Assembly (NCBI GenBank): GCA_036845805.1
Contig: DAIUDD010000001.1
Coordinates: forward strand, 628 to 64,627
DNA from: Patescibacteria group bacterium
Lineage (GTDB): Bacteria; Patescibacteriota; Patescibacteriia; UBA2196
Direction of reading: 5' to 3'
Length of the DNA: 64,000 bases
The notes under the pieces are model-generated. The model saw only the letters and a list, made by a program, of their open reading frames with translations, did no database searches and had not been told where the DNA came from. This document shows positions 250-62,497 of this stretch, piece by piece (positions within the stretch are counted from its first letter, which is position 1; the number at the start of each line of letters is the position of its first letter). Both the position numbers and the translations under genes were made by a program.

Positions 250-279
250 AAAAGAAGTTGATATTATTATAACATGTCT

Positions 280-658
280 GTCATCCTGAACGATTAGTGA
301 AGGATCTCTCCTTTATACCTCATCAAATAAATCTTTAAAAGTTGGATTAAAATCTTTTATTAATTTTAATTTCTTTTTTCTTACCCAACCCTTAATTTCT
401 TTTTCTCTCCCAATAGCATCAGCCGGATTATTATAAGTTTCATAGTAGACTAATTTTTTGATATTGTATCTGGCGGTAAAACCTTTGATAATCTTATATT
501 TATGTTGCCAAACTCTAGCCTTTAAATTATTGGTTATACCAGTATAAAGGGTTAAAGAAATATTGGTCATGATATAGACAGAATAGAATTTATTGTGATG
601 TTTTTTATACTTAAAACTATACTTCTGCATAGAGATTCTTCGTTCCGCTCAGAATGAC
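280..658. mobile_element. Palindromic element carrying a GIY-YIG nuclease gene between ~30-bp terminal inverted repeats
   Basis: Left TIR gtcatcctgaacgattagtgaaggatctctcc (280-311) is the inverted complement of right TIR agagattcttcgttccgctcagaatgac (631-658). The ORF stop lies 1 nt inside the left TIR and the ORF start lies immediately next to the right TIR. Confidence 0.6.
313..630 (-). CDS. GIY-YIG nuclease family protein (UPF0213-like)
   Basis: 105 aa. The N-terminus YSVYIMTN...LYTGITNNLKARVWQHK is the GIY-YIG motif. Confidence 0.8.
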   Translation of the reverse strand: MQKYSFKYKKHHNKFYSVYIMTNISLTLYTGITNNLKARVWQHKYKIIKGFTARYNIKKLVYYETYNNPADAIGREKEIKGWVRKKKLKLIKDFNPTFKDLFDEV

Positions 659-667
659 AAACAATGA

Positions 668-2718: not shown

Positions 2719-3294
2719 ATGAAAAAGCGCCAAAAAATTGTTTATTCAAAAGAGGGGTATAAATTTGTGGTGGCAGAAGAACCGCCGACAACATTCAAAG
2801 ACTCCACCTGGTATTGCTGGGTGGGGCCAAAGGAGCGACCAACTTTTTGGAGCGAAGAAGGCGGCCAAGATTTTCTGCTTGATGGCAAAGCCCATTTAAG
2901 TATTTTGGGCGATGCCAATAAAGCATCGTTTGCCGATAGTCCGGAACCGGGGCGAATGTGGTATTGGCGCTATGATATAAAGTACTTTCGAGAGTGTTCA
3001 CTGTCCTTAACAGGCAAGCGACAAACAGTGGTATTTTCGAAAGACGGCCAAGTCTTTCGGGTGGGCAGTAAGCCGCCAAAAAAGTTTAGGGCCAATCGCT
3101 GGTATTGTTGGTTAGGCCCAAAAAGGCGCCAACCAGGGTGGAACCTAAGTGGCGATATGAATTTTGTGCTTGATAGTAAAGCACACCTCTGTTGTAAAGC
3201 AGAGGATCACTATGCCGCGTTTGTCGATTCTCCCGATCCAGATCGTCTTTGGAATTGGGGAGAATCAATTGAACACTTTCGACAGTGCAAGTAA
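2719..3294 (+). CDS. Hypothetical protein of two tandem ~95-aa repeats (GC-rich)
   Basis: Internal duplication, both repeats ending in Cys: KIVYSKEGYKF..WYCWVGPKERP..DGKAHL..FADSPEPGRMWYW..YFREC matches TVVFSKDGQVF..WYCWLGPKRRQ..DSKAHL..FVDSPDPDRLWNW..HFRQC. RBS ttggag precedes the ATG at 2719. GC is well above background. Confidence 0.5.
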   Translation: MKKRQKIVYSKEGYKFVVAEEPPTTFKDSTWYCWVGPKERPTFWSEEGGQDFLLDGKAHLSILGDANKASFADSPEPGRMWYWRYDIKYFRECSLSLTGKRQTVVFSKDGQVFRVGSKPPKKFRANRWYCWLGPKRRQPGWNLSGDMNFVLDSKAHLCCKAEDHYAAFVDSPDPDRLWNWGESIEHFRQCK

Positions 3295-11712: not shown

Positions 11713-11831
11713 TAAAAATTTAAAATTCAAAAATCAAAAATTAAAATTACAATTTAAAATCATTAAAATTTTTAAAAAATTTTAATACTTTAATTTTGAC
11801 TTTTGCCTTTTAACTTTTGTTTTTATTTTTT

Positions 11832-13079
11832 ATGTCTTTTCTCTCTACTCTCCATATTGCTTATCGTGCTATCAGATTGCACAAAGTCCGTTCGGTTTTA
11901 ACCGTACTCGGTCTTTTAATTGGCGTCATGTCTATTATTATTGTCATGAATGTCGGGCAGGGTTTAAAAGGTTTAATTTTAGATTATATAAAAATTTTTG
12001 GCTCGGATTATGTGCAAGTGGAAACAAAAGTTCCTACTACCGCTAGAAATTCAGCTGACAACGCTACTAGCATGGCCCAAGGCGTGACCGTTACCACTAT
12101 GAAAATTTCTGATGCCGAGGCGGTTGGTCGTCATCCTAATGTCAAAGGCTACTATGCTGGTCAGATGGGCCAGGCCGTGGCTTCCTATTTAGACGAGAAA
12201 AAAACCGCCATGCTTTGGGGTATTTCCAGCAGTTTTTTTACTTTATCTGAAGCCAAGGTGGAAGCGGGTCGCGAATTTAGTGATGAAGAGGATCGTTCTC
12301 AGGCACGGGTAGTTGTTTTGGGCGCCAACTTAAAAGAGAAACTTTTTGGTTCTGATGACGCTTTGGAAAAATATATAAAAATTGGTAATAAAAATTTTAA
12401 AGTTATTGGCGTTTTGGAAAAACAAGGCGGCAGCATGTTTTTTGACATGGATTCAATTGTTTTTATGCCGGTCAGAACTTTGCAAAAACAAATTATGGGT
12501 GTTGATCATATTCAATTTTTTACTGTTTATTTAAAAGATGCCAGTCAGGCCTATGCCACCGCTGCCGAGATCGAAGATATTTTAAGAGCCGAACATAAAA
12601 TTACTGATCCTAAAAAAGATGACTTTTCTGTCACCACTATGGACGAGGCCATGGGCATGTTAAATACTGTCACTGGTGGCATTTCACTTTTGCTTGTTGC
12701 TATTGCCGCTATTTCTTTAATTGTCGGTGGGGTCGGTATTATGAATATTATGTATGTTTCGGTGACTGAGCGTACTTATGAAATTGGTTTAAGAAAAGCC
12801 TTGGGCGCCACTAGCAAAAATATTTTATGGCAATTTTTATGGGAAGCGATTTTTTTAACTTTTTTAGGCGGTTTGATTGGTGTTTTTCTGGGTACGATTT
12901 TTAGTTTTCTCGGCGCCATAGCCGCTAAATCCGCCGGCTTTGATTTGGGCTTGAATTTTTCTTTAACTGGTTTTATTTTAGGCACGGTTTTTTCCGCCAC
13001 GGTCGGTTTGATTTTTGGCGTTTATCCGGCGCGCAAAGCCGCCGCTTTGGATCCGGTCGAAGCGTTGAGACAAGAATAA
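11832..13079 (+). CDS. ABC transporter permease, MacB/FtsX family (paralog)
   Basis: Same architecture, with LIVGGVGIMNIMYVSVTERTYEIGLRKALGA. ATG at 11832 preferred over the upstream TTG. Confidence 0.85.
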   Translation: MSFLSTLHIAYRAIRLHKVRSVLTVLGLLIGVMSIIIVMNVGQGLKGLILDYIKIFGSDYVQVETKVPTTARNSADNATSMAQGVTVTTMKISDAEAVGRHPNVKGYYAGQMGQAVASYLDEKKTAMLWGISSSFFTLSEAKVEAGREFSDEEDRSQARVVVLGANLKEKLFGSDDALEKYIKIGNKNFKVIGVLEKQGGSMFFDMDSIVFMPVRTLQKQIMGVDHIQFFTVYLKDASQAYATAAEIEDILRAEHKITDPKKDDFSVTTMDEAMGMLNTVTGGISLLLVAIAAISLIVGGVGIMNIMYVSVTERTYEIGLRKALGATSKNILWQFLWEAIFLTFLGGLIGVFLGTIFSFLGAIAAKSAGFDLGLNFSLTGFILGTVFSATVGLIFGVYPARKAAALDPVEALRQE

Positions 13080-13253
13080 AATGTATTATGATTTTTGTAG
13101 GGGTGGGTTTAAAACCCACCCTTTTGTTTTTATCAATATTTCAATATTTTATTTGTAGAGACAAAAAATTTTTGCCCTCCTTGCTCCATTTTTATTGAAG
13201 GCGGGGTTCCGGAACCCCGCCTTCACAACAGGACAGCTCCAGAGCCGCTCTAC

Positions 13254-23337: not shown

Positions 23338-23432
23338 CCTTTTCAAGGAGGGGCGGACTCTGATGAAATCAGAGCCGGGGAGGTTAATATATTCGCCGAT
23401 AGGCGTTTTGTCATCCCGCGTCCACGGGATCC
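23338..23432. repeat. Cluster of three hairpins: cccctccttttcaaggagggg, ctctgatgaaatcagag, gtcatcccgcgtccacgggatcc (GTCAT family)
   Basis: Perfect stems, located between the glyS stop and the true start of the next gene. The ORF-track N-terminal extension (23363) reads through them. Confidence 0.6.
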
Positions 23433-23446
23433 ATAAAATAATAAAT

Positions 23447-26563: not shown

Positions 26564-27256
26564 ATGCTCTACCTTGTTGCCACTCCGATTGGTAATTTAA
26601 AAGATATCACTCTTCGCGCTTTGGAAATTTTAAAGAGTGTTGATTTCATTTTATGCGAGGATACTCGTGTGACCAGAAAACTTCTCGATCATTATGAAAT
26701 AAAAAATAAAAAATTGATTGCTTATCATCATCATACTGATGCTAAAAAAACTGCCGAAATCATTGAATTAATTAAAAATAATAATGTGGCTTTGGTCACC
26801 GATGCGGGCACCCCTGGTATTTCCGATCCCGGCAATATTTTAATTGCCGCGCTTGCAGGGACAGGTTTTGACCTGTCCGCTGTGTCTGTCATTCCTATTC
26901 CCGGTCCCTCTGCTTTAATTACCGCACTTTCTATTTCTGGCTTACCTACAGATAAATTTATTTTTAAAGGTTTTGTGCCGCACAAAAAAGGCCGGGAAAC
27001 TTTTTTAAGACAAGTTTTAGAAGCCAAAGAGACAGTTGTTTTTTATGAATCATGTCATCGAATAATAAAGTGTCTAGAACAATTAAATTTATTTTGTAGG
27101 GACAGGTCTCGACCTGTCCAAATGGTTGTCTGCCGCGAACTGACCAAAAAATTTGAAACTATTTATCGCGGCACTGCCGAAGAAATCCTCGCGCAAATAA
27201 AAAAGGAGTTCCCGAACGGAACCCCAAAAGGTGAATTTGTGATCATTTCACAATAA
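26564..27256 (+). CDS. rsmI: 16S rRNA (cytidine1402-2'-O)-methyltransferase RsmI, with two in-frame palindromic insertions
   Basis: LYLVATPIGNLKDIT, ILCEDTR, DAGTPGISDPG, FYESCHR and RELTKKFE. Insertions at 26858-26878 and 27096-27119 encode GTGFDLS and CRDRSRPVQ. Confidence 0.85.
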   Translation: MLYLVATPIGNLKDITLRALEILKSVDFILCEDTRVTRKLLDHYEIKNKKLIAYHHHTDAKKTAEIIELIKNNNVALVTDAGTPGISDPGNILIAALAGTGFDLSAVSVIPIPGPSALITALSISGLPTDKFIFKGFVPHKKGRETFLRQVLEAKETVVFYESCHRIIKCLEQLNLFCRDRSRPVQMVVCRELTKKFETIYRGTAEEILAQIKKEFPNGTPKGEFVIISQ

Positions 27257-27470: not shown

Positions 27471-28958
27471 ATGTTAAATAAATTCTATCTTACCACCACC
27501 CTGCCATATGTCAATAGCGAACCGCATATTGGTTTTGCTTTGGAAATTATTCAAGCCGATACCATTGCCCGTTGGCAGCGTTTGAATGACAATGAAGTAT
27601 TTTTTAATACTGGCACTGATGAGCATGGTTTAAAAATTTATCGAAAAGCCATGGAAGAGGGCAAAGAACCGCAAGAATATTGTGACGAATATGCGGCCAA
27701 ATTTGATAATTTAAAAAACGCGCTGAATTTAAGTTATAATAATTTTATCCGCACGACCGACAAGCATCATCTAAAAGCAGCGCAAGAATTTTGGCAACGT
27801 TGTGAAAAAAACGGCGACATTTACAAAAAAAACTATCAGGTTAAATATTGTGTCGGCTGCGAATTGGAAAAAACCGAATCGGAATTAGAAAATGACAAAT
27901 GTCCGATTCATCCTAATTTAGAATTAGAATTAATTAATGAAGAAAATTATTTTTTTCGTTTTAGTAAATATCAACAGCCGCTTTTAGATTTATATCATAA
28001 AAATCCAGAATTTGTGGTGCCGGCGCATCGGCTAACCGAAATTAAAAATTTTGTCGCCGCTGGTTTGGAAGATTTTAGCATCTCCCGCCTTAAAGAAAAA
28101 ATGCCTTGGGGTATTAGCGTGCCGGGCGATGAAAATCATGTGATGTATGTTTGGTTTGATGCTCTGATCAATTATATTTCCTGTTTGGGTTGGCCCGAAG
28201 ATGAAAAAAAATTTCAAGAATTTTGGCCAGGGTGTCAGGTTGCGGGCAAAGACAATTTGCGCCAGCAATCGGCCATGTGGCAAGCCATGTTAATGTCTGC
28301 TGGCTTACCGCCATCCAAGCAAATATTTATTCATGGTTTTATTACGGCCAATGGTGAAAAAATGAGTAAATCTCTGGGCAATGTGATTAATCCATTTGAA
28401 TTAGTTAAAAAATTTGGCACTGATGCCGTGCGTTATTATTTGCTGGCTAAAATTTCTCCTTTTGAAGATGGCGATTATACTGAAGAAAAATTTAAAGAAG
28501 CTTATATTGCCGATCTTTGTAATGGTCTTGGCAATCTGGTTTCGCGTGTTTCCAATTTAATTGAAAAGAATGATATTCAAATAGAATGTCATCCTGAGCG
28601 ATTAGCGAAGGATCCCGCATCTTTTCTGTCATCCTCGCGAACGCGAGGATCCCATGGTTTTAAAGATGATCAACTGTCTAAATCATTCTCTGAAAAATTA
28701 GAAAACTATAAATTTAACGAAGCCTTGGAAATTCTTTGGAATAAACTGCGCGCCTGCGATGAAACAGTCACTAAAACTGAACCATGGAAAATTAAAGATC
28801 AAGATAGATTAAAAGAAATTTTAGAACCAATTGCAGAAGATATTTTAAATGTGGCAATTTTACTCCAACCTTTTATGCCCGAAACCGCGGAAAAAATTAA
28901 GGCTACTTTTACCGCAGAAAAAATTAAAAAAAGCGAGCCCTTATTTCCCAGAATATAA
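27471..28958 (+). CDS. metG: Methionine--tRNA ligase, carrying a 66-bp in-frame repeat-element insertion
   Basis: Class I HIGH region (PYVNSEPHIGFA), KMSKS, and zinc knuckles CxxC. The insertion CHPERLAKDPASFLSSSRTRGSHG is encoded by element 28588-28653. Confidence 0.9.
   Translation: MLNKFYLTTTLPYVNSEPHIGFALEIIQADTIARWQRLNDNEVFFNTGTDEHGLKIYRKAMEEGKEPQEYCDEYAAKFDNLKNALNLSYNNFIRTTDKHHLKAAQEFWQRCEKNGDIYKKNYQVKYCVGCELEKTESELENDKCPIHPNLELELINEENYFFRFSKYQQPLLDLYHKNPEFVVPAHRLTEIKNFVAAGLEDFSISRLKEKMPWGISVPGDENHVMYVWFDALINYISCLGWPEDEKKFQEFWPGCQVAGKDNLRQQSAMWQAMLMSAGLPPSKQIFIHGFITANGEKMSKSLGNVINPFELVKKFGTDAVRYYLLAKISPFEDGDYTEEKFKEAYIADLCNGLGNLVSRVSNLIEKNDIQIECHPERLAKDPASFLSSSRTRGSHGFKDDQLSKSFSEKLENYKFNEALEILWNKLRACDETVTKTEPWKIKDQDRLKEILEPIAEDILNVAILLQPFMPETAEKIKATFTAEKIKKSEPLFPRI
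28588..28653 (+). repeat. GTCAT-family double hairpin element inside metG, read in-frame
   Basis: gtcatcctgagcgattagcgaaggatccc + gtcatcctcgcgaacgcgaggatccc. The first unit nearly matches the left arm of the element at 180-210. Confidence 0.7.
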
Positions 28959-29033
28959 TATATTTTGTCATTCCCGACCCGATCGGGAATCAAGAAATTT
29001 TAAAATTTAAAATTTTAAATTTAAAATTATTCT

Positions 29034-29552
29034 ATGACTATTCTCGACCTAATCTTAATTCTCATTATTTTCTTTTTTGTTTTTTCAGGTTTTTGGTTTG
29101 GCTTAATCCACGCGCTTGGCGCTTTAATTGGTACTATTGCCGGTGTCTTAGTGGCTGGTCAGTATTTTGAAAAATTGGCCGTGACGATCGGTCCGATTTT
29201 CGGTAGCAATAACAATTTGGCGCGCATCATTTCTTTTTTAATTATTTTTGTGGTGGTTAATCGCTTGGTCGGTTTGGTTTTTTGGCTGATTAATAAAATT
29301 TTCAATGTGATTGCCATTATTCCGTTTTTAAAAACCATCAATCGTTTGGCTGGCGCCATCTTGGGTTTTTTAGAAGGCGCCATTGTTTTGGGCGTCGTCT
29401 TAATAATGATTGGCAAATTTCCTTTCGCTGGTTTTATTATTCCGGCCGTGGAAGCCTCGAGCGTAGCCAAATGGTTGACTAGTATTGGTAAAATTTTTGT
29501 CCCGCTTTTGCCAGAACTTGTGCGCCAAGCACGAAGCTATCTGAATTTTTAA
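29034..29552 (+). CDS. cvpA: CvpA family membrane protein
   Basis: MTILDLILILIIFFFVFSGFWFGLIHALGALIG and four TM helices. Confidence 0.7.
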   Translation: MTILDLILILIIFFFVFSGFWFGLIHALGALIGTIAGVLVAGQYFEKLAVTIGPIFGSNNNLARIISFLIIFVVVNRLVGLVFWLINKIFNVIAIIPFLKTINRLAGAILGFLEGAIVLGVVLIMIGKFPFAGFIIPAVEASSVAKWLTSIGKIFVPLLPELVRQARSYLNF

Positions 29553-29562
29553 TTTTTAAATT

Positions 29563-29642
29563 GTCATGCTGAACTTGATTCAGCATCCCTTTACTTTGAG
29601 ATAATTTTTGATATTTAGATCCCGAAACAAGTTCGGGATGAC
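29563..29642 (+). repeat. GTCAT-family element (two hairpins; termini gtcat...atgac) immediately upstream of tatD
   Basis: gtcatgctgaacttgattcagcatccc ... agatcccgaaacaagttcgggatgac. Confidence 0.65.
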
Positions 29643-29658
29643 AGAACAGGGTTTTGTT

Positions 29659-30624
29659 ATGACCATAATCGACTCCCACTGCCATCTTAATTTTCCCGAA
29701 TATAAAGATGATCAGGAAAATATCATTGCCGATTGCCTAAAAAAAGGGATCGGCCTTATTAACATTGGCACCAGTTTAAAAACTTCGACCGAAGTTTTTA
29801 ATTTAGCCAATCAATACCCAAATAAACCAATCTACGCCGCGATTGGTCTTTATCCCTCACATTGTTCTGATACTGATTATGACGCGCACGAGCAAGCCTT
29901 AAAAGATCCGGACATTTTTTTTAACCCAGCTTTATATCAGAAATTAATTGATGCTGATATAAATAAAAAAATTGTGGCGGTGGGTGAAATTGGTTTGGAA
30001 TATAGTTATGTGCCCTCTGGCCGTGATCTTGCAGAAATAAAAAGTTTGCAAAGACAGGGTTTTATTGATCAATTAAATTTTGCCGGGAAAAATAATCTGC
30101 CAGTAATTCTCCATGCCCGCGGGTCAAAGGAAAAACCAGATGACGCATATGAAGATATGTTAGAAATTTTAACCGCCTTTTTGTCATCCTCGCGAAAGCG
30201 AGGATCCCATGGTTTAGGTGATGAAACACAAGATTCCCGCTGGAGTTTACCCCGTACCGCGATACGGGGCGGGAATGACAGTAACCTAAAAGGCGTTCTT
30301 CATTGTTTTAGTTCAACAATCGAAATCGCTCAAAAATTTCTTGATTTAGGTTTTTATCTTGGTTTTACCGGTATTATTACTTTTAAAAATAAATCTGTTG
30401 ACAATTTGCGGAAAGTTGTTAAACTAATTTCCTTGGAGAAAATTTTAGTCGAAACCGATGCCCCGTATTTAACCCCCGAACCACATCGCGGGGAAATTAA
30501 TAAGCCGCAAAATGTTACTCTAGTGGCGCAAAAAATTGCTGAGCTTAAAAACATTTCTTATGGGGAAGTGTGTAAAATAACCACAAACAATGTTAAAAAT
30601 TTGTTTTTATGTTTTAATGTTTAA
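29659..30624 (+). CDS. tatD: TatD family metal-dependent hydrolase, with a 97-bp in-frame element insertion
   Basis: IDSHCHLNF, VGEIGLEY, ILHARGS, VLHCFSST and ILVETDAPYL. The ~31-aa insertion LSSSRKRGSHG...RGGNDSNLK is encoded by 30183-30279. The start should be the MTIID Met, not the ORF-track 29608. Confidence 0.85.
   Translation: MTIIDSHCHLNFPEYKDDQENIIADCLKKGIGLINIGTSLKTSTEVFNLANQYPNKPIYAAIGLYPSHCSDTDYDAHEQALKDPDIFFNPALYQKLIDADINKKIVAVGEIGLEYSYVPSGRDLAEIKSLQRQGFIDQLNFAGKNNLPVILHARGSKEKPDDAYEDMLEILTAFLSSSRKRGSHGLGDETQDSRWSLPRTAIRGGNDSNLKGVLHCFSSTIEIAQKFLDLGFYLGFTGIITFKNKSVDNLRKVVKLISLEKILVETDAPYLTPEPHRGEINKPQNVTLVAQKIAELKNISYGEVCKITTNNVKNLFLCFNV
30183..30279 (+). repeat. GTCAT-family composite element inside tatD, in-frame
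   Basis: gtcatcctcgcgaaagcgaggatccc...aagattcccgc...ccccgtaccgcgatacgggg cgggaatgac has the same architecture as 56513-56593. Confidence 0.7.
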
Positions 30625-42264: not shown

Positions 42265-42693
42265 ATGAAAATCCTTGCTCTCGACTATGGCGTTAAAAAT
42301 ATTGGCCTTGCCCTCACCGATGTTGAGGGCAATTTTGCTTTTGCCTATGACACCTTGCGCGTAGAGACACAAAATTTTGCGTCTCTACAAAAAATAATTG
42401 CTGATTTAAAAAATATTTGTGCTAAAGAAAAAGTGGAGAAAATAATTATTGGCTTGCCCGTACAATTATCTGGAGAAAATAGTTCTGCTACTGTGGCCGT
42501 GTTTGAGTTTGTTAAACAACTAGAGCAGGGGATAGGTTTGCCAGTAGAAACCATTGATGAGCGCTGGAGCACCATGCAAGCTCACAAAATTAGTAGGGAC
42601 AGGTCGCGACCTGTCCGTGCCAATAATATCGATGCTCTTTCCGCCCAAATTTTATTGCAAGGGTATTTAGAAAAAATAAGAATTACTAATTAA
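42265..42693 (+). CDS. ruvX: Putative pre-16S rRNA nuclease / Holliday junction resolvase-like RuvX (YqgF), with in-frame 24-bp palindrome
   Basis: MKILALDYGVKNIGLALTD and RNase H-like fold. The insertion SRDRSRPVR is encoded by 42593-42616. Confidence 0.8.
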   Translation: MKILALDYGVKNIGLALTDVEGNFAFAYDTLRVETQNFASLQKIIADLKNICAKEKVEKIIIGLPVQLSGENSSATVAVFEFVKQLEQGIGLPVETIDERWSTMQAHKISRDRSRPVRANNIDALSAQILLQGYLEKIRITN

Positions 42694-42756
42694 TACAAAT
42701 ATACTAATATACTAATATTTTTAAATTTGTATATTCGTAATTTTTTGTCATTCCAG

Positions 42757-42796
42757 CGAGCTTTAAGTTGCCAGTGGCAAGTTAAAGCTGGAATCC
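42757..42796. repeat. GTCAT-family long hairpin
   Basis: gtcattccagcgagctttaagttgccagtggcaagttaaagctggaatcc forms a ~20-bp stem with one mismatch. Confidence 0.6.
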
Positions 42797-42844
42797 AGAA
42801 AAAACAAAAATAAAAAAGCCGCCGATTGCTCGACGGCCAAAGCG

Positions 42845-43092: not shown

Positions 43093-44187
43093 ATGTCAAT
43101 AGTAAATAATTTAAAATACATTTTTCCATTTCTTTTTTCGCTAATATTAGCGCTTATTTTAACTCCCTTAATTAAAAAATTAGCGGAAAAATTTAAAATT
43201 TTAGACGAGCCAAAAAGCGAAAGAAAAACACATCAAAAACCAACTCCGTTACTTGGCGGTCTCTCTGTTTTTTTAGCATTTTTAATTACTTTAATAATTG
43301 TTTGGTTTTTGGGCTGGCTTAATGATGGAGTTTTAAAGTCAACACAAATTTTTGGAATAATTTTTGGCAGTTCAATTTTAATTATTGGTGGTTTTTTAGA
43401 CGATAAATATAATTTAAAACCTTGGCAATCTTTTTTATTTCCGCTCTTAGCCGTCATCATCGCCATTTTCTTTGGCATTGCTATTAAATATGTGACTAAT
43501 CCTTTTATCGCGGGCACTGGTCCCTATGGCCGCGCTTTATTTTATTTTGATTGGTTAAATTTGCCTGCCATTTCTTTTGGTGCTGTTTTTTCTTTCTTTT
43601 GGCTGCTTGGCATGATTTATACCACTAAATTTTTAGATGGCCTTGATGGGCTTGTTACTGGTGTTGGCACCCTTGGCGCCGTGATTTTATTTATCGTTTC
43701 TCTTTTTTGGGACGTGCCCTTAAGCGGCACTTCTTTAATTTGCTTAATTTTAGCTGGCGCGCTCTTGGGTTTTTTAAAATATAATTTTTATCCAGCTAAA
43801 ATTTTTTTAGGCGAAGGCGGTTCCACTTTAATTGGTTTTCTTTTGGGCATATTGGCCATTATTTCCGGTGGCAAGATTGCCACCGCACTTTTAATTATGG
43901 GCATTCCAGTTTTAGACGTGTTGTTTGTAATTTTTCAGCGCTTATTTTCTCGCCGCCATATTTATGAAGGCGATCGCAAACACTTGCATTTTCGTTTTCT
44001 TGACGCCGGTTTTTCCCAGCGCCAAACTGTTTTTTTGTTATATTTTTTGACTTTAATTTTTGGCAGCTCAGCTATTTTTTTGCAAAGCCAGTCCAAAGTC
44101 ATTGCCATTGGCGTGCTTTTTTTGGTAATGATTAGTTTAGTTATTGCTGTGTCAATAAAATATAATAACAAGAATTACGATTTATGA
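43093..44187 (+). CDS. Polyprenyl-phosphate N-acetylhexosamine-1-phosphate transferase (MraY/WecA, glycosyltransferase family 4)
   Basis: 10-11 TM helices and NTKFLDGLDGL (NxxNxxDGIDGL-type) motif; HQKPTPLLGG. Confidence 0.8.
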   Translation: MSIVNNLKYIFPFLFSLILALILTPLIKKLAEKFKILDEPKSERKTHQKPTPLLGGLSVFLAFLITLIIVWFLGWLNDGVLKSTQIFGIIFGSSILIIGGFLDDKYNLKPWQSFLFPLLAVIIAIFFGIAIKYVTNPFIAGTGPYGRALFYFDWLNLPAISFGAVFSFFWLLGMIYTTKFLDGLDGLVTGVGTLGAVILFIVSLFWDVPLSGTSLICLILAGALLGFLKYNFYPAKIFLGEGGSTLIGFLLGILAIISGGKIATALLIMGIPVLDVLFVIFQRLFSRRHIYEGDRKHLHFRFLDAGFSQRQTVFLLYFLTLIFGSSAIFLQSQSKVIAIGVLFLVMISLVIAVSIKYNNKNYDL

Positions 44188-44239
44188 TTTTTTATTCTTA
44201 AATCGTAATTCTTAAATCTTAAATCGTTTTTTAAGTAAT

Positions 44240-54358: not shown

Positions 54359-54359
54359 T

Positions 54360-54445
54360 GTCATTTTGAGAAGCAAAGCGACGAGGAATCCCAATATAAA
54401 TTTAAAAGAGATCCTTCGCCCCGCATTTGCGGTGTTCAGGATGAC
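54360..54445 (+). repeat. GTCAT-family MITE with both arms related to the GIY-YIG element TIRs
   Basis: gtcattttgagaagcaaagcgacgaggaatccc...AT loop...agagatccttcgccccgcatttgcggtgttcaggatgac. Compare with 280-311 and 631-658. Confidence 0.7.
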
Positions 54446-54460
54446 AACCGTTTAGTTTTT

Positions 54461-56500: not shown

Positions 56501-56512
56501 TTAATTTTTTGT

Positions 56513-56593
56513 GTCATCCCCGCGTAAGCGGGGATCTCGTGAACCAAGAGTTTGTAACAAAGATTCTGGGATTCCCGCTTTCGCGGGAATGAC
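56513..56593 (+). repeat. GTCAT-family composite element (termini gtcatcc...gggaatgac)
   Basis: gtcatccccgcgtaagcggggatc...aagattc...gggattcccgctttcgcgggaatgac. The ORF-track reads it as an N-terminal extension of nfu. Confidence 0.7.
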
Positions 56594-56603
56594 AATAATA
56601 TTT

Positions 56604-56925: not shown

Positions 56926-58107
56926 ATGAAAATCTATTTTGATCATGCGGCTACTACCCCGGTTGATAAACAGGTATTAGAAGCAATGCAACCATATTTT
57001 AGTGAAAAATTTGGCAATGCCTCTTCGGTGCATTCTTTTGGCCAGGAAGCTGAACAAGCCGTGAGTGAAGCCAGAAAAAGGGTGGCGGATTTTTTAAATT
57101 GTAATTCCGAAGAAATAATTTTTACTTCTGGCGCCACTGAAGCAGACAATTTGGCAATAATTGGCATTTGTCATCCTGAACTTTTTTCAGGATCTCTTAG
57201 TAAAGAGACAAAACCACACATTATCACCACGGCTTTTGAGCACCCAGCAGTTTTGGAAACCTGCAAATATTTAGAAAAGAAAGGCGTGGAAGTGAGTTAT
57301 GTTAAACCAGACAGCGAAGGCATTATTCATGTTGAAGATATTGAAAAAGAAATTAAAAATAATACCATTTTAATTTCTGTTATGTATGTTAATAATGAAA
57401 TTGGCACGGTGCAACCGATAAAAAACATTGGCGATTTGTTAAAAAAAATAAACGCCGAAAGAACTAATAAAATATATTTTCATACCGATGCAGTGCAAGC
57501 CACACTTTACCAAGATATGAATGTAGAAAATTTAGGTGTAGATTTGATGTCAATTTCTGGTCATAAAATTTATGGGCCAAAAGGCATCGGTGTTTTATAT
57601 GTTAAAAAAAATACACCCCTAAAAAATATACAACATGGCGGTCATCATGAATTTGGCAAAAGAGCGGGCACTTTAAATACTCCGGGTATTGTGGGTATGG
57701 GCCAAGCCATTGAATTAATAAAAGATCATGATCAAGAAAAAATAAAAAACTTACGCGATTATTTGTGGAGCGAATTACAAAAAAATATTTCCGATTTAAA
57801 ATTAAACGGCAGTTTGGAAAAAAGAACTCCAGGCAATTTGAATTTTTCCGTTAATGGTGTGGAAGGCGAGGCACTTTTATTGGGGCTTGATTTGGCAGGT
57901 GTTGCCATTTCTACTGGTTCGGCTTGTTCATCGGGTTCCTTAGAGCCATCGCATGTTTTAATGGCTATTGGCTTAAGCCATGAATTGGCCCATGGCAGTT
58001 TACGAATTACTTTGGGTTATGAAAATACCAAAGAAGAATGCGATCAATTTGTGAAAACTCTGAAGCCTTTGGTGGAAAAATTTAGAGCTATGGCGCCGAA
58101 GGGATGA
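56926..58107 (+). CDS. iscS: Cysteine desulfurase (IscS/NifS family)
   Basis: MKIYFDHAATTP, PLP Lys in SISGHKIYGPKGIG, and catalytic loop SACSSGS. Confidence 0.9.
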   Translation: MKIYFDHAATTPVDKQVLEAMQPYFSEKFGNASSVHSFGQEAEQAVSEARKRVADFLNCNSEEIIFTSGATEADNLAIIGICHPELFSGSLSKETKPHIITTAFEHPAVLETCKYLEKKGVEVSYVKPDSEGIIHVEDIEKEIKNNTILISVMYVNNEIGTVQPIKNIGDLLKKINAERTNKIYFHTDAVQATLYQDMNVENLGVDLMSISGHKIYGPKGIGVLYVKKNTPLKNIQHGGHHEFGKRAGTLNTPGIVGMGQAIELIKDHDQEKIKNLRDYLWSELQKNISDLKLNGSLEKRTPGNLNFSVNGVEGEALLLGLDLAGVAISTGSACSSGSLEPSHVLMAIGLSHELAHGSLRITLGYENTKEECDQFVKTLKPLVEKFRAMAPKG

Positions 58108-59264: not shown

Positions 59265-59295
59265 GTAGGGACAGGTCGCGACCTGTCCTGTTTTT
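59265..59295 (+). terminator. Intrinsic terminator formed by the 20-bp palindrome GGACAGGTCGCGACCTGTCC plus T-tract
   Basis: gtagggacaggtcgcgacctgtcctgtttttt lies 2 nt after the stop of the 58571-59263 gene. The same palindrome occurs inside rsmI and ruvX. Confidence 0.7.
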
Positions 59296-60247: not shown

Positions 60248-61507
60248 ATGGATCTCTTTACTGATCATTATCAAAAAAATTGGCGCACTACCGCTCCTTT
60301 AGCCGAACGGCTTCGACCAACAAAACTGGAAGATTTTGTTGGGCAAGAAGAAATTGTCGGCCCCAATTCTTTATTACGAAAAGATATTGCTGCCAATCAG
60401 TTAAGTTCTTTAATTTTTTGGGGCCCGCCCGGGAGTGGTAAAACTACGCTAGCGACCGTGATTGCCAATTTGACCAAATCTTTTTTTATTGAAATTTCAG
60501 CCGTCTCTGCTGGCATTACTGATTTACGCACCGCGATTAAGCAAGCCGCTGACCAAATAAAATTTTATCAGCGTCCAACAATTTTATTTGTTGATGAAAT
60601 TCATCGCTGGAATAAAGCCCAGCAAGATGCTCTCTTGCCTTATGTGGAAAAGGGTCTGATAATTTTAATTGGTGCGACCACTGAAAATCCTTCTTTTGAA
60701 GTGATTGCCCCTTTATTGTCTCGGGTTAGAATTTTTACTCTAAAACCTCTCACGCCCTTAAATTTAAAAATTATTATTAATCGAGCCCTAAAAGACGAAA
60801 TTAACGGTCTTGGTAAATATCGGGCCAAAATAGATCCAGCAGCAGAAAATTTTTTAATTCAAACCAGCAATGGTGATGCGCGTGTTATGCTTAATGTTTT
60901 GGAAGTTGCTATTAAAAATTGCGCTTTAGATAAATTTGATGAGCGTCTGATTGATATTAATTTAATTTCCGAAGCTTTTCAACATCCACCACTTAAATAT
61001 GATAAATCTGGCGAAGAACATTATAATGTTATTTCTGCTTTTATTAAATCAATGCGCGGTTCAGATGTTGATGCTGCTCTTTATTGGTTGGCGCGCTTAC
61101 TTACCGCTGGCGAAGATCCAAAATTTATTGCTCGGCGGATGATTATTTTTTCTTCGGAAGATATTGGTAATGCCGACTCTATGGCTCTCGTGGTAGCCAA
61201 TGCCGTTTTTTCGGCTGTAGAAAAAATTGGTTTGCCCGAATGCCGTATTAATTTGGCCCAGGGGGTGGTTTATTTAGCCAAGGCACCCAAGTCTAACAAG
61301 TCCTATCTTGGTCTTTTAAACGCCGAGGCCGAAGTGAAACAAAGTTTAAACTTGCCCGTGCCTTTGCATTTGCGTAATGCCGTCACCAATTTAATGAAAG
61401 AATGGGGTTATGGCGAGAATTATAAATATCCGCATTTGGAAGATGATTCAGCGCAAAAATATCTGCCGGATAAGTTGATTGGCAAAAAATTTTATCATGA
61501 TTTGTAA
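60248..61507 (+). CDS. rarA: Replication-associated recombination protein A (RarA/MgsA AAA+ ATPase)
   Basis: RPTKLEDFVGQEEIVG, Walker A GPPGSGKTTLA, FVDEIHRWNKAQQD and the MgsA C-terminal domain. Confidence 0.9.
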   Translation: MDLFTDHYQKNWRTTAPLAERLRPTKLEDFVGQEEIVGPNSLLRKDIAANQLSSLIFWGPPGSGKTTLATVIANLTKSFFIEISAVSAGITDLRTAIKQAADQIKFYQRPTILFVDEIHRWNKAQQDALLPYVEKGLIILIGATTENPSFEVIAPLLSRVRIFTLKPLTPLNLKIIINRALKDEINGLGKYRAKIDPAAENFLIQTSNGDARVMLNVLEVAIKNCALDKFDERLIDINLISEAFQHPPLKYDKSGEEHYNVISAFIKSMRGSDVDAALYWLARLLTAGEDPKFIARRMIIFSSEDIGNADSMALVVANAVFSAVEKIGLPECRINLAQGVVYLAKAPKSNKSYLGLLNAEAEVKQSLNLPVPLHLRNAVTNLMKEWGYGENYKYPHLEDDSAQKYLPDKLIGKKFYHDL

Positions 61508-61612
61508 CTCCGAACTTTAGTTCGGATAGTTTTTATCATGATTTGTAACTCCGAACTTTAGTTCGGATAGTTGTTATATCTTGTAACTCCGAACTTTAGT
61601 TCGGAATTCATA
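61504..61612 (+). repeat. Three tandem REP hairpins (tgtaactccgaactttagttcgga), including a duplication of the last rarA codons
   Basis: The 41-bp unit tttatcatgatttgtaactccgaactttagttcggatagtt is repeated. Palindromic core ccgaact-tt-agttcgg. A fourth copy lies at 62346-62369. Confidence 0.8.
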
Positions 61613-61616
61613 ATAT

Positions 61617-62093
61617 ATGAAATATCTAAATTTACCCATACGCCCGCGCTTACCACACACAGAATATATCGGTCAAAAAAGATATTTTATTACTATTAAT
61701 TCTTTTAATCGAAAAAACTATTTTGTTGATAAAAAAATAATTTCTTTTATAAAACCTCATTTGTTTGAAAGTTTAAAGAGTTATAATTTTGAAGTTTGGA
61801 TTTTTCTTTTTATGCCCGATCATTTGCATCTATTATTAGAAGCTAAAGATATAAATTGTAATTTAGAAAATTTTATTAAAGATTTTAAACAAAAATCTAG
61901 TTATTGTTTTAAAAAAATTTTTCGGCAAAGATTATGGGCCAAAAGTTATTGGGATCATATTTTAAGAAAAGACGAGGATATTACCGGTATAGTTTATTAT
62001 ATTTTGTATAATCCCGTGAGAAAAGGATTGATTAAGGACTGGAAGGAATATCAATGGTGGGGTTCCACGCTTTTTAAAAAAGATGAATTTTAA
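61617..62093 (+). CDS. REP-associated tyrosine transposase (RAYT; IS200/IS605 TnpA-like, Y1 HUH)
   Basis: HUH motif MPDHLHLLLEA and catalytic Tyr motif YILYNPVRKGL; 158 aa; flanked by REPs. Confidence 0.8.
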   Translation: MKYLNLPIRPRLPHTEYIGQKRYFITINSFNRKNYFVDKKIISFIKPHLFESLKSYNFEVWIFLFMPDHLHLLLEAKDINCNLENFIKDFKQKSSYCFKKIFRQRLWAKSYWDHILRKDEDITGIVYYILYNPVRKGLIKDWKEYQWWGSTLFKKDEF

Positions 62094-62345
62094 TCCCATC
62101 TAAAGATGGGAGTTACATTCCGGCCTAAAGGCCGGAGTTACATTTTAAAAACCACCACGCGTTGACATGATGGTTTTTTTAATCTTCACCTTACCCCCTG
62201 TTAGCGCAAGATCAAAACAGGAAAACCTGCTTAACCTTGACTTAGACTACTCGATCTAGCTAGGAGGAAGCCGTCACTTTGGTCACTAAACAAGGGGAAA
62301 GGTAAAGATTATGATTTTGAACCTTTGTTCAGAAGTATTATGTCT

Positions 62346-62369
62346 TGTAACTCCGAACTTTAGTTCGGA
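62346..62369 (+). repeat. REP copy downstream of the RAYT gene
   Basis: tgtaactccgaactttagttcgga. Confidence 0.8.
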
Positions 62370-62497
62370 CCTTTGTTAATAAAAAAATCCTCCCACCGAA
62401 ACTCCTGATATAAAACATGATTATCTATATAATATAATAATAAAAAATTAATTTGTCAAATTTAAAAAATAAAAAGGGCGCTATTTTCTCGCGCCCT

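Follow-up and report, generated by a model that had tools for sequence, protein, structure and literature searches.

The subject of this analysis is a family of short hairpin repeats, here called GTCAT elements, in a stretch of 64,000 nt from a Kuenenbacteria-like Patescibacteria genome (contig DAIUDD010000001.1; "the window" in the following, G+C 37%). About 18 curated copies are present in the window, and five of them lie in frame inside three housekeeping genes, which encode methionyl-tRNA synthetase (metG, MetRS), a TatD-family hydrolase (tatD) and an IscS/NifS-like cysteine desulfurase (iscS). Taken as a whole, it is quite probable that hairpins of an already known superfamily have spread in this genome and that selection has left, within genes, those copies that are in frame and sit in loops.

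The closest described repeats are the CGTC-tagged REPs (Di Nocera, De Gregorio & Rocco 2013, BMC Genomics 14:522; PMC3733652). These consist of the tag CGTC, which is often TGTC, a stem of 8–9 bp starting from AT, a loop of 4–5 nt and a CCA-like tail of 3 nt, and they are multicopy, mostly arranged as inverted dimers and mainly intergenic. Intragenic copies were found in genes for DNA repair, tRNA synthetases and pseudouridine synthases, where dimers encode 20–30 amino acids. The same study equated CGTC-1 with dRS3 of Neisseria, and CGTC-1 and CGTC-4 of Rickettsia conorii with RPE-6 and RPE-4; no dedicated enzyme was reported, and mobilisation of CGTC REPs by RAYT proteins was left open. The Rickettsia palindromic elements (RPEs) are in-frame palindromic repeats in conserved genes (Ogata et al. 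2000, Science; 2002, Genome Res; related in PMC10969869 and PMC3733652).

A partner protein has been described in Neisseria. The Neisseria Transformation Sequence (NTS; CGTCATTCCCGCGMAVGCGGGAATCYRG) and Ssn-related motifs (SRMs) flank the ssnA gene, which encodes a single-domain GIY-YIG nuclease of 94 amino acids that binds the hairpin as single-stranded DNA (ssDNA) and cleaves the DNA just upstream (Chenal et al. 2025, Nat Commun 16:2388; PMC11893778). Cutting of NTS-bearing ssDNA by SsnA lowers the integration of transforming DNA in Neisseria. From 29 genomes of four phyla, the same authors derived an SRM pattern, and they found the motif near the gene in 71% and on both sides of it in 42%. 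In N. meningitidis, 2% of the NTS copies are located in genes (PMC11893778).

The octamer TGTCATYC was counted 18 times in the window, where 2.25 occurrences would be expected, and none of 100 shuffles reached 18, thus these hairpin repeats are not a product of chance. The unit is composed of an unpaired 5' tag TGTC, a stem of 8–9 bp opening with AT, a loop of 4–5 nt and a short CCN tail. All 18 curated copies open with GTCAT, and the preceding base is T in 17 of them and C in one. Loops have 2–5 nt in most copies, a few being long or nested (30232–30280 and 42746–42797), and the 3' tails are CCC, CCA or CTC and in rarer cases CTA or CAA. When 26 short copies of the window and its relatives were aligned, the tag columns varied little or not at all, and the stem pairs 5–25 (AU) and 6–24 (UA) showed no variation. 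Overall, 96.7% of the stem cells are paired, with changes on both sides in four of the seven stem pairs; the covariation score was reached in 0 of 500 shuffles, and no slid register came close. Folded as ssDNA, the element regions outperform shuffled sequences with z values from -3.5 to -5.7, with the exception of the metG stretch (z = -1.3).

Single units measure 24–48 nt and doublets 63–99 nt. Ten of the 18 copies are arranged in five inverted pairs whose tags lie at the outer ends (179–250, 29562–29643, 30182–30280, 54359–54446 and 56512–56594). The others are a tandem pair in metG, singles at 23409, 28966, 42746 and 57169, and two copies bracketing the open reading frame (ORF) at 313–630. 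Only 5 of 18 copies fall within coding sequences while 84% of the window is coding (P = 2e-7), a clear sign of selection against insertion into coding DNA. No target-site duplication was visible around the in-gene copies, and no parent insertion sequence with matching ends was found in the window. An Rfam search returned tRNAs only and no match at the elements. Readings of the elements as introns, inteins, terminators or CRISPR repeats were rejected: the units are too small, lack a T-run and are irregularly spaced, and all in-gene copies are in frame and free of stops.

By their sequence features, the GTCAT hairpins are members of the superfamily that comprises the CGTC/TGTC REPs, dRS3/NTS, RPE-4/-6 and the SRMs. 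The copy at 56568–56594 (GTCATTCCCGCGAAAGCGGGAATC) agrees with the NTS consensus at 25 of 28 positions, 24 of them contiguous, and other copies share with NTS the tag, the AT(Y)C...G(R)ATC frame and the tail. Further points of likeness to the NTS/SsnA system are the motif–gene–motif arrangement around a GIY-YIG gene for about 100 amino acids and the association of gene and motif across phyla. It differs in that 5 of 18 copies in the window (28% versus 2% in N. meningitidis) lie inside housekeeping genes, and in that the GIY-YIG protein of the window is known from its sequence, whereas nuclease activity and a role in transformation have been shown for Neisseria SsnA. With the CGTC REPs, the window elements have in common the tag, the AT-starting stem, the tail, the inverted dimers and the presence of some copies wholly within ORFs; they differ by the long or nested loops of some copies and by the presence of a partner GIY-YIG gene.

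A resemblance to the elements of Rickettsia had been proposed in a first-pass annotation of this DNA, and it turned out to be closer than an analogy, as RPE-4 and RPE-6 are classed in the same CGTC superfamily (PMC3733652); this kinship comes via the classification of Di Nocera et al. Both kinds are palindromic repeats that a small genome carries in frame in conserved, mutually unrelated genes, at sites predicted to suit the three-dimensional fold and the function of the protein. RPE-1 is different, having about 100–150 bp and a conserved peptide, whereas the window elements are the short units and doublets described above, with a peptide that is set by the open frame. The host differs as well, being a free-living or episymbiotic member of the Patescibacteria and not an intracellular alphaproteobacterium. 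The GTAG REPs and REPINs mobilised by RAYT proteins are similar in their tag-plus-hairpin design, inverted doublets, an enzyme gene bracketed by inverted copies and some copies in genes, but their tag is GTAG rather than GTCAT and their enzyme is an HUH tyrosine transposase rather than a GIY-YIG protein.

The metG gene (27471–28958, + strand; PDB matches at 2.9e-112) encodes a MetRS of 495 amino acids and contains two tandem elements at residues 372–395. Element 1 (TGTCATCCTGAGCGATTAGCGAAGGATCCC, 28587–28616, + strand) is read as CHPERLAKDP and element 2 (TGTCATCCTCGCGAACGCGAGGATCCC, 28627–28653, + strand) as LSSSRTRGS, giving the joint reading CHPERLAKDP...LSSSRTRGSHG. Among 120 homologues, the nearest named relatives belong to Candidatus Kuenenbacteria and other Patescibacteria, and an identical protein (HPL95189.1) is present on five contigs from NCBI, JGI and ENA. 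The gene order in the window (M16 peptidase, AI-2E transporter, rsmI, metG, cvpA, tatD, rbfA, DHH phosphoesterase, clpP) is conserved in relatives. The loop between GLGNLV.R.SNL.EKN and the next helix usually has about 16 residues in the homologues (e.g., LSLKLDANSDGEL) and 37 in the window, a gain of 21 amino acids, and element-free MetRS relatives have 472–474 amino acids compared to 495. A gain of 22–24 amino acids from 28588–28653 had been claimed earlier. Element-free loops are present in the homologues P0006-9 and in L003 (78% identity), which lacks the element also at the DNA level; here and below, L001–L003 and L084–L089 denote related loci from other assemblies. Alignments with PDB structures show a gap at the same site. 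In an AlphaFold2 model of MetRS (mean predicted local distance difference test score, pLDDT, 91.9), residues 379–396 score below 50 and lie between the helices 338–366 and 401–411.

The tatD gene (29659–30624, + strand) encodes a protein of 321 amino acids and carries an inverted pair TGTCAT...ATGACA at 30182–30280, which amounts to 99 nt or 33 codons and covers residues 175–208. The left element (30182–30208, + strand) is read as LSSSRKRGS, and the right element (30232–30280, - strand; GTCATTCCCGC...GCGGGAATC), with a hairpin nested in its loop, as ...RGGNDS. The fold of the 116-nt region has a z value of -3.5. Compared to the short element-free loops of L001 and L003, the insert adds about 34 amino acids, the earlier estimate having been about 31 from 30183–30279. 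At this site, the loop of TatD homologues in the PDB comprises about 13 residues, compared to about 50 in the window. In the AlphaFold2 model (mean pLDDT 91.3), residues 181–210 score 55–60 and connect helix 162–180 with strand 212–214. Thus, the extra residues of both enzymes map to low-scoring loops between well-modelled secondary structure elements.

Element 2 of metG and the left tatD copy are identical at 33 of 34 nt, including the tail CCCATGGTTT, which identifies the two inserts as copies of one repeat and not as diverged native loops. This bears on the possibility that the extra residues are ancestral, lineage-specific loops or artefacts of assembly or binning. Loop lengths of MetRS and TatD do vary across bacteria and the window stems from a metagenome-assembled genome, but the two inserts match intergenic copies as well as each other, relatives without elements exist, the identical MetRS was recovered on the five contigs mentioned above, and comparable in-gene copies occur in eight independent assemblies. 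These comparisons effectively refute an ancestral or artefactual origin, which is scarcely credible. The claim of the first-pass annotation that elements interrupt metG and tatD without breaking the frame was borne out: the inserts are copies of a dispersed repeat, and some close relatives (L003 for MetRS; L001 and L003 for TatD) are free of them.

A fifth in-gene copy, absent from the first-pass annotation, was identified in iscS (56926–58107, + strand; Pfam Aminotran_5 3e-86, PDB 7e-106). The element (TGTCATCCTGAACTTTTTTCAGGATCTC, 57169–57196, + strand; fold z = -3.9) is read as CHPELFSGS and coincides with a gap of seven residues relative to solved cysteine desulfurases in the PDB. The loop has 17 amino acids compared to about nine in most homologues and is therefore about eight residues longer. 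A metagenome scan with IscS yielded no more than two close relatives, at 68% and 64% identity, and the insertion was therefore judged against more distant homologues.

Two reading frames are used by the in-gene copies. The second metG element and the left tatD copy are read in the frame xxG-TCA-TCC (Ser-Ser, within Leu-Ser-Ser-Ser-Arg), in line with the earlier proposal of one common frame, whereas metG element 1 and the IscS copy are read as TGT-CAT-CCT (Cys-His-Pro, followed by Glu) and depart from it. In metG element 1, both unused frames contain stops and the frame in use is the sole stop-free one of three; in the IscS copy, one of the two unused frames is interrupted. All 21 in-gene copies from the window and eight related loci are free of stops in the host frame, but they represent only about eight independent events, which is too few for a test of frame bias. 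It had been suggested that selection favours frame-compatible insertion. With only 5 of 18 copies in coding sequences, this is better described as purifying selection that leaves in-frame, stop-free copies in permissive loops. The uninterrupted host ORFs also speak to the idea that the inserts are removed before the mature protein is formed, by a tiny intron, translational bypass or an intein-like process. Introns in rRNA and tRNA genes are a known feature of Patescibacteria. However, hairpins of 24–48 nt show no ribozyme or intein features, Rfam detects nothing at these sites, and freedom from stops in 21 of 21 copies would be needless if the inserts were removed, which leaves this idea with next to no chance of being correct.

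In-gene copies are general in this lineage. The same MetRS loop carries TGTCATCCCGACGAAAGTCGGGATCCA in L001, the body of the L001 element with a tag decayed to GCCAT in L002, a TCCCGCG stem with an upstream remnant in L085 and L088, and an element copy in L086. In L084, the body of metG element 1 of the window is preserved at 26 of 26 nt, with a tag decayed to TTTAT. In L087 and L088, inverted pairs (63 and 75 nt) occupy the same TatD loop. In rsmI, which has no GTCAT pair in the window, in-frame inverted pairs add about 30–40 residues (e.g., CHSRESGNPE...DQVRDDK) in L002 (3537–3603), L086 (3735–3835) and L088 (1525–1632). The IscS of L089, the closest metagenomic relative (68% identity), has no element at the site used in the window and instead a - strand GTCAT hairpin at 3041–3082 in a different loop, read as RDSSVSASRRIPRNDI. 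When the loop was masked, a neighbour-joining tree of MetRS showed a patchy presence of elements, with the element-free homologues P0006, P0008 and P0009, for example, placed beside the element-bearing P0002. Elements must therefore have been gained more than once, lost more than once, or both; as branches are short, no number of independent gains is claimed.

Repeat-like peptides that do not match the GTCAT element were seen, at the protein level, in the TatD loop of other relatives (ITNYGLQIT and ARNDSQA). Peptides such as ITNYGLQIT, ITDYGLRIT and ITRYPLLIT, present in this loop in many relatives, look like translations of an ATTACGA-type repeat. An AT-rich inverted repeat of this type (AAGAATTACGATTTATGA / TCTTAAATCGTAATTCTT) is located at 44170–44213 in the window, where it overlaps the 3' end of the gene at 43093–44187. 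At a second TatD site just after HARGS(K/Q), the extra peptides PTRNDSQAKHSDSGG and PARNDSQARLAMSGG in P0143 and P0144 look like reverse-strand readings of repeats. If the peptides of these relatives derive from other repeats, permissive loops acting as a selective filter become more likely than a preference for particular sites.

The recurrence of the same loops raises the question whether in-gene copies might be kept for a function, either by marking core genes so that incoming homologous DNA is cut or by influencing mRNA stability or translation rate. By analogy with SsnA, which modulates transformation in Neisseria, such a role is conceivable, and it would fit with elements in the same MetRS, TatD and RsmI loops across lineages that differ by 15–25% in MetRS, with stem complementarity kept by two-sided changes while the peptides differ, and with the share of 28% of the window copies in genes as opposed to 2% in N. 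meningitidis. Nevertheless, the inserts are missing from several close relatives (L003, P0006-9, and L001 and L003 for TatD), tags decay in place (GCCAT in L002, TTTAT in L084), and covariation of stems is expected of any family that spreads via a hairpin. Non-matching peptides such as ITNYGLQIT and ARNDSQA in the TatD loop of relatives also suggest permissive loops rather than an element-specific role. A function of the in-gene copies is therefore considered unlikely.

The candidate partner of the elements is a single-domain GIY-YIG gene at 313–630 (- strand) that encodes a protein of 105 amino acids, with PF01541 as its only Pfam domain (7e-12), and this protein is predicted to be an SsnA-like nuclease. 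Inverted copies bracket the gene: one at 279–308 (+ strand), just past its 3' end, and one at 632–659 (- strand), in the orientation of the gene and ending about 3 nt before the start codon. Within positions 1–760 of the window, this cassette and its four hairpins lie between a tRNA-Ile gene (64–140) and a tRNA-Val gene (668–744), both on the - strand. A scan of species-representative genomes gave 80 loci with GIY-YIG homologues of 44–65% identity, which span Bacteroidota, Chloroflexota, Acidobacteriota, Alphaproteobacteria, Saccharibacteria, Paceibacterota and others. With a relaxed tag-plus-closing-stem pattern, a GTCAT hairpin was found within 300 bp of the homologue in 66 of 80 loci, on both sides in 48 and as two copies facing the gene in 40. 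Earlier perfect-stem finders had missed the CCTGAGCG...CGAAGG type and under-counted, at 22–28 of 80 loci. Element density is 5.09 per kb near the GIY-YIG gene versus 0.37 per kb further out.

The window also encodes a bona fide RAYT protein (61617–62093; NCBIfam NF047646, 96.5 bits against a cut-off of 80), which might be thought to mobilise the GTCAT hairpins, with the GIY-YIG gene as a merely frequent neighbour. RAYTs act on tag-plus-hairpin ssDNA of much the same design, and their role for CGTC REPs was left open (PMC3733652). However, the flanks of this RAYT gene (61490–62370) hold a different hairpin family, GTAAC-TCCGAAC-TTTA-GTTCGGA, with three + strand copies upstream, two inverted variants downstream (62095–62140) and one at 62349, and no GTCAT element is present there. 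RAYT and GTAAC hairpins together are a complete REPtron, and a RAYT flanked by hairpins of its own is an unlikely mobiliser of the GTCAT family. Furthermore, GTCAT elements bracket the GIY-YIG gene here and lie near its homologues in the 66 of 80 loci, in line with Chenal et al. (PMC11893778), which makes mobilisation by the RAYT very unlikely. As a separate observation, the TAA stop of the gene at 60248–61507 lies in the first GTAAC tag, and this unit is tandemly duplicated together with the last five codons of that gene.

With these alternatives weighed, spread of hairpins followed by selection is still the preferred explanation. Copies would spread by a process based on the hairpin or on ssDNA, in which we infer an involvement of the nuclease, and re-insertion or gene conversion would maintain the similarity of copies within a genome. 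Spread and homogenisation would thereby proceed through recognition of the single-stranded hairpin by the nuclease. Most copies that land in genes would be lost to selection, and the survivors would be those whose total length is divisible by three, which bring no stop into the host frame and which lie in a surface loop tolerant of additional residues. For the window, the outcome of such a filter would be the two tandem copies in MetRS, the inverted doublet in TatD and the single copy in IscS.

Several points weigh against this explanation or limit how far it reaches. The published SRM pattern, HGTCWYN(0-2)YYVSBRHN(0-5)WNVSBRGN(0-2)RNCYNB, matches only 1 of 18 copies (56512–56539; 0.04 per shuffle), the others being near misses; membership in the superfamily thus rests on the NTS consensus, the features of CGTC REPs and the association with the gene. 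The GIY-YIG ORF had no match in sequence searches against the PDB or NCBIfam, and no Ssn protein has been shown to transpose (PMC11893778). Insert lengths in MetRS and TatD, compared with relatives, do not equal element lengths, and in L001 the MetRS gained 13 amino acids (39 nt) for an element of 28 nt. Translation of the inserts as Ser/Arg/Gly-rich or Cys-His-Pro-Glu loop extensions is most likely, a view that we infer from the frame and stop constraints that the copies respect and from the analogy with in-frame RPEs. The inserts most likely have little effect on enzyme function and would be nearly neutral. Finally, the presence of different stems in the same loops across relatives could reflect a preference for sites and not only a selective filter.

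Such a preference leads to a further idea, namely that the Ssn/hairpin system repeatedly targets, or is retained at, a few core-gene loops (MetRS, TatD, RsmI and IscS) with copies that are uniform within each genome. We regard this as rather improbable. If it were true, the GIY-YIG nuclease would drive site-preferring integration or gene conversion, or the hairpins would have a selected role, possibly the tagging of essential genes so that SsnA destroys incoming homologous ssDNA in cells that scavenge DNA.

The remaining copies are intergenic, and some of them inflate ORF calls. An inverted pair is situated between tRNA-Ile and the GIY-YIG cassette (179–250, both strands), a single element (28966–28993, + strand) follows 8 nt past the metG stop codon, and an inverted pair (29562–29643, fold z = -4.9) lies between cvpA and tatD; the TTG-start version of tatD is inflated by a hairpin read as an N-terminal extension. 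In the same manner, the ORF of an isochorismatase-family gene (23363) takes in the single element at 23409–23433 (+ strand) upstream of the gene, while the Pfam domain begins at residue 32. A variant with a long stem (42746–42797, + strand) is located in the intergenic region after ruvX, and similar long variants occur in L085 and L088. An inverted pair of degenerate elements (54359–54446) separates an S41 peptidase gene from rplI. The inverted pair upstream of nfu (56512–56539, + strand; 56568–56594, - strand) had been taken for an N-terminal extension of Nfu. This claim was not sustained: the ORF that reads the pair at 56512–56594 begins at a GTG within the element, the Pfam NifU domain starts only at residue 41 of the call, and in the relative L089 Nfu starts at a Met equivalent to 56605. 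The upstream "peptide" of L089 is unrelated to that of the window, yet also holds an element. For these reasons, the Nfu extension is almost certainly an artefact of ORF calling and the copy is intergenic.

Other palindromic sequences were noted in the window. A third hairpin family with the tag GTAG (GTAGGGACAGGTCGCGACCTGTCC) is found at 27096–27119, 42593–42616 and 59265–59288, and GTAGRGAC occurs six times against 0.47 expected. Two copies are in frame within genes, with CRDRSRPV as the reading in rsmI and SRDRSRPV in ruvX/yqgF. In rsmI, the copy occupies the very loop in which relatives have their GTCAT pairs; as this loop is no longer than in the element-free L003, the copy is not a clean insertion. 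A near-perfect palindrome of 28 nt (GTAGAGACACAAAATTTTGCGTCTCTAC, 42361–42388), whose two ends are GTAG and CTAC, lies in ruvX. Downstream of the gene at 11817–13079, a perfect palindrome of 30 nt (TGAAGGCGGGGTTCC/GGAACCCCGCCTTCA, 13196–13225) is present with GTAGAGAC nearby at 13155; this palindrome could represent a terminator or a further REP-like unit.

The kind of element, the partner protein and the in-frame phenomenon are already known, and no new class of element or mechanism is revealed. The novelty proposed earlier therefore falls away for the element family, with intragenic CGTC REPs (PMC3733652) and the SsnA partner (PMC11893778) both published, and is upheld as a possibility for the host lineage. 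No report of these repeats or of their in-gene copies in Patescibacteria was found in a literature search that did not cover all journals. Besides the host lineage, the targets MetRS, TatD, IscS and RsmI, the high in-gene share (28% versus 2%) and the recurrent loops may be new.

For annotation, repeat-derived segments in alignments of MetRS, TatD, RsmI and IscS from this lineage should be masked. The known range of the CGTC REP/SRM family and of its GIY-YIG partner now includes the Candidate Phyla Radiation, and this very small genome tolerates repeats in essential enzymes with a much higher frequency than Neisseria. The recurrent loops and the uniformity of copies within genomes provide a natural test of whether these repeats are still mobile and whether Ssn proteins move or homogenise them, a question that Chenal et al. 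had left open.

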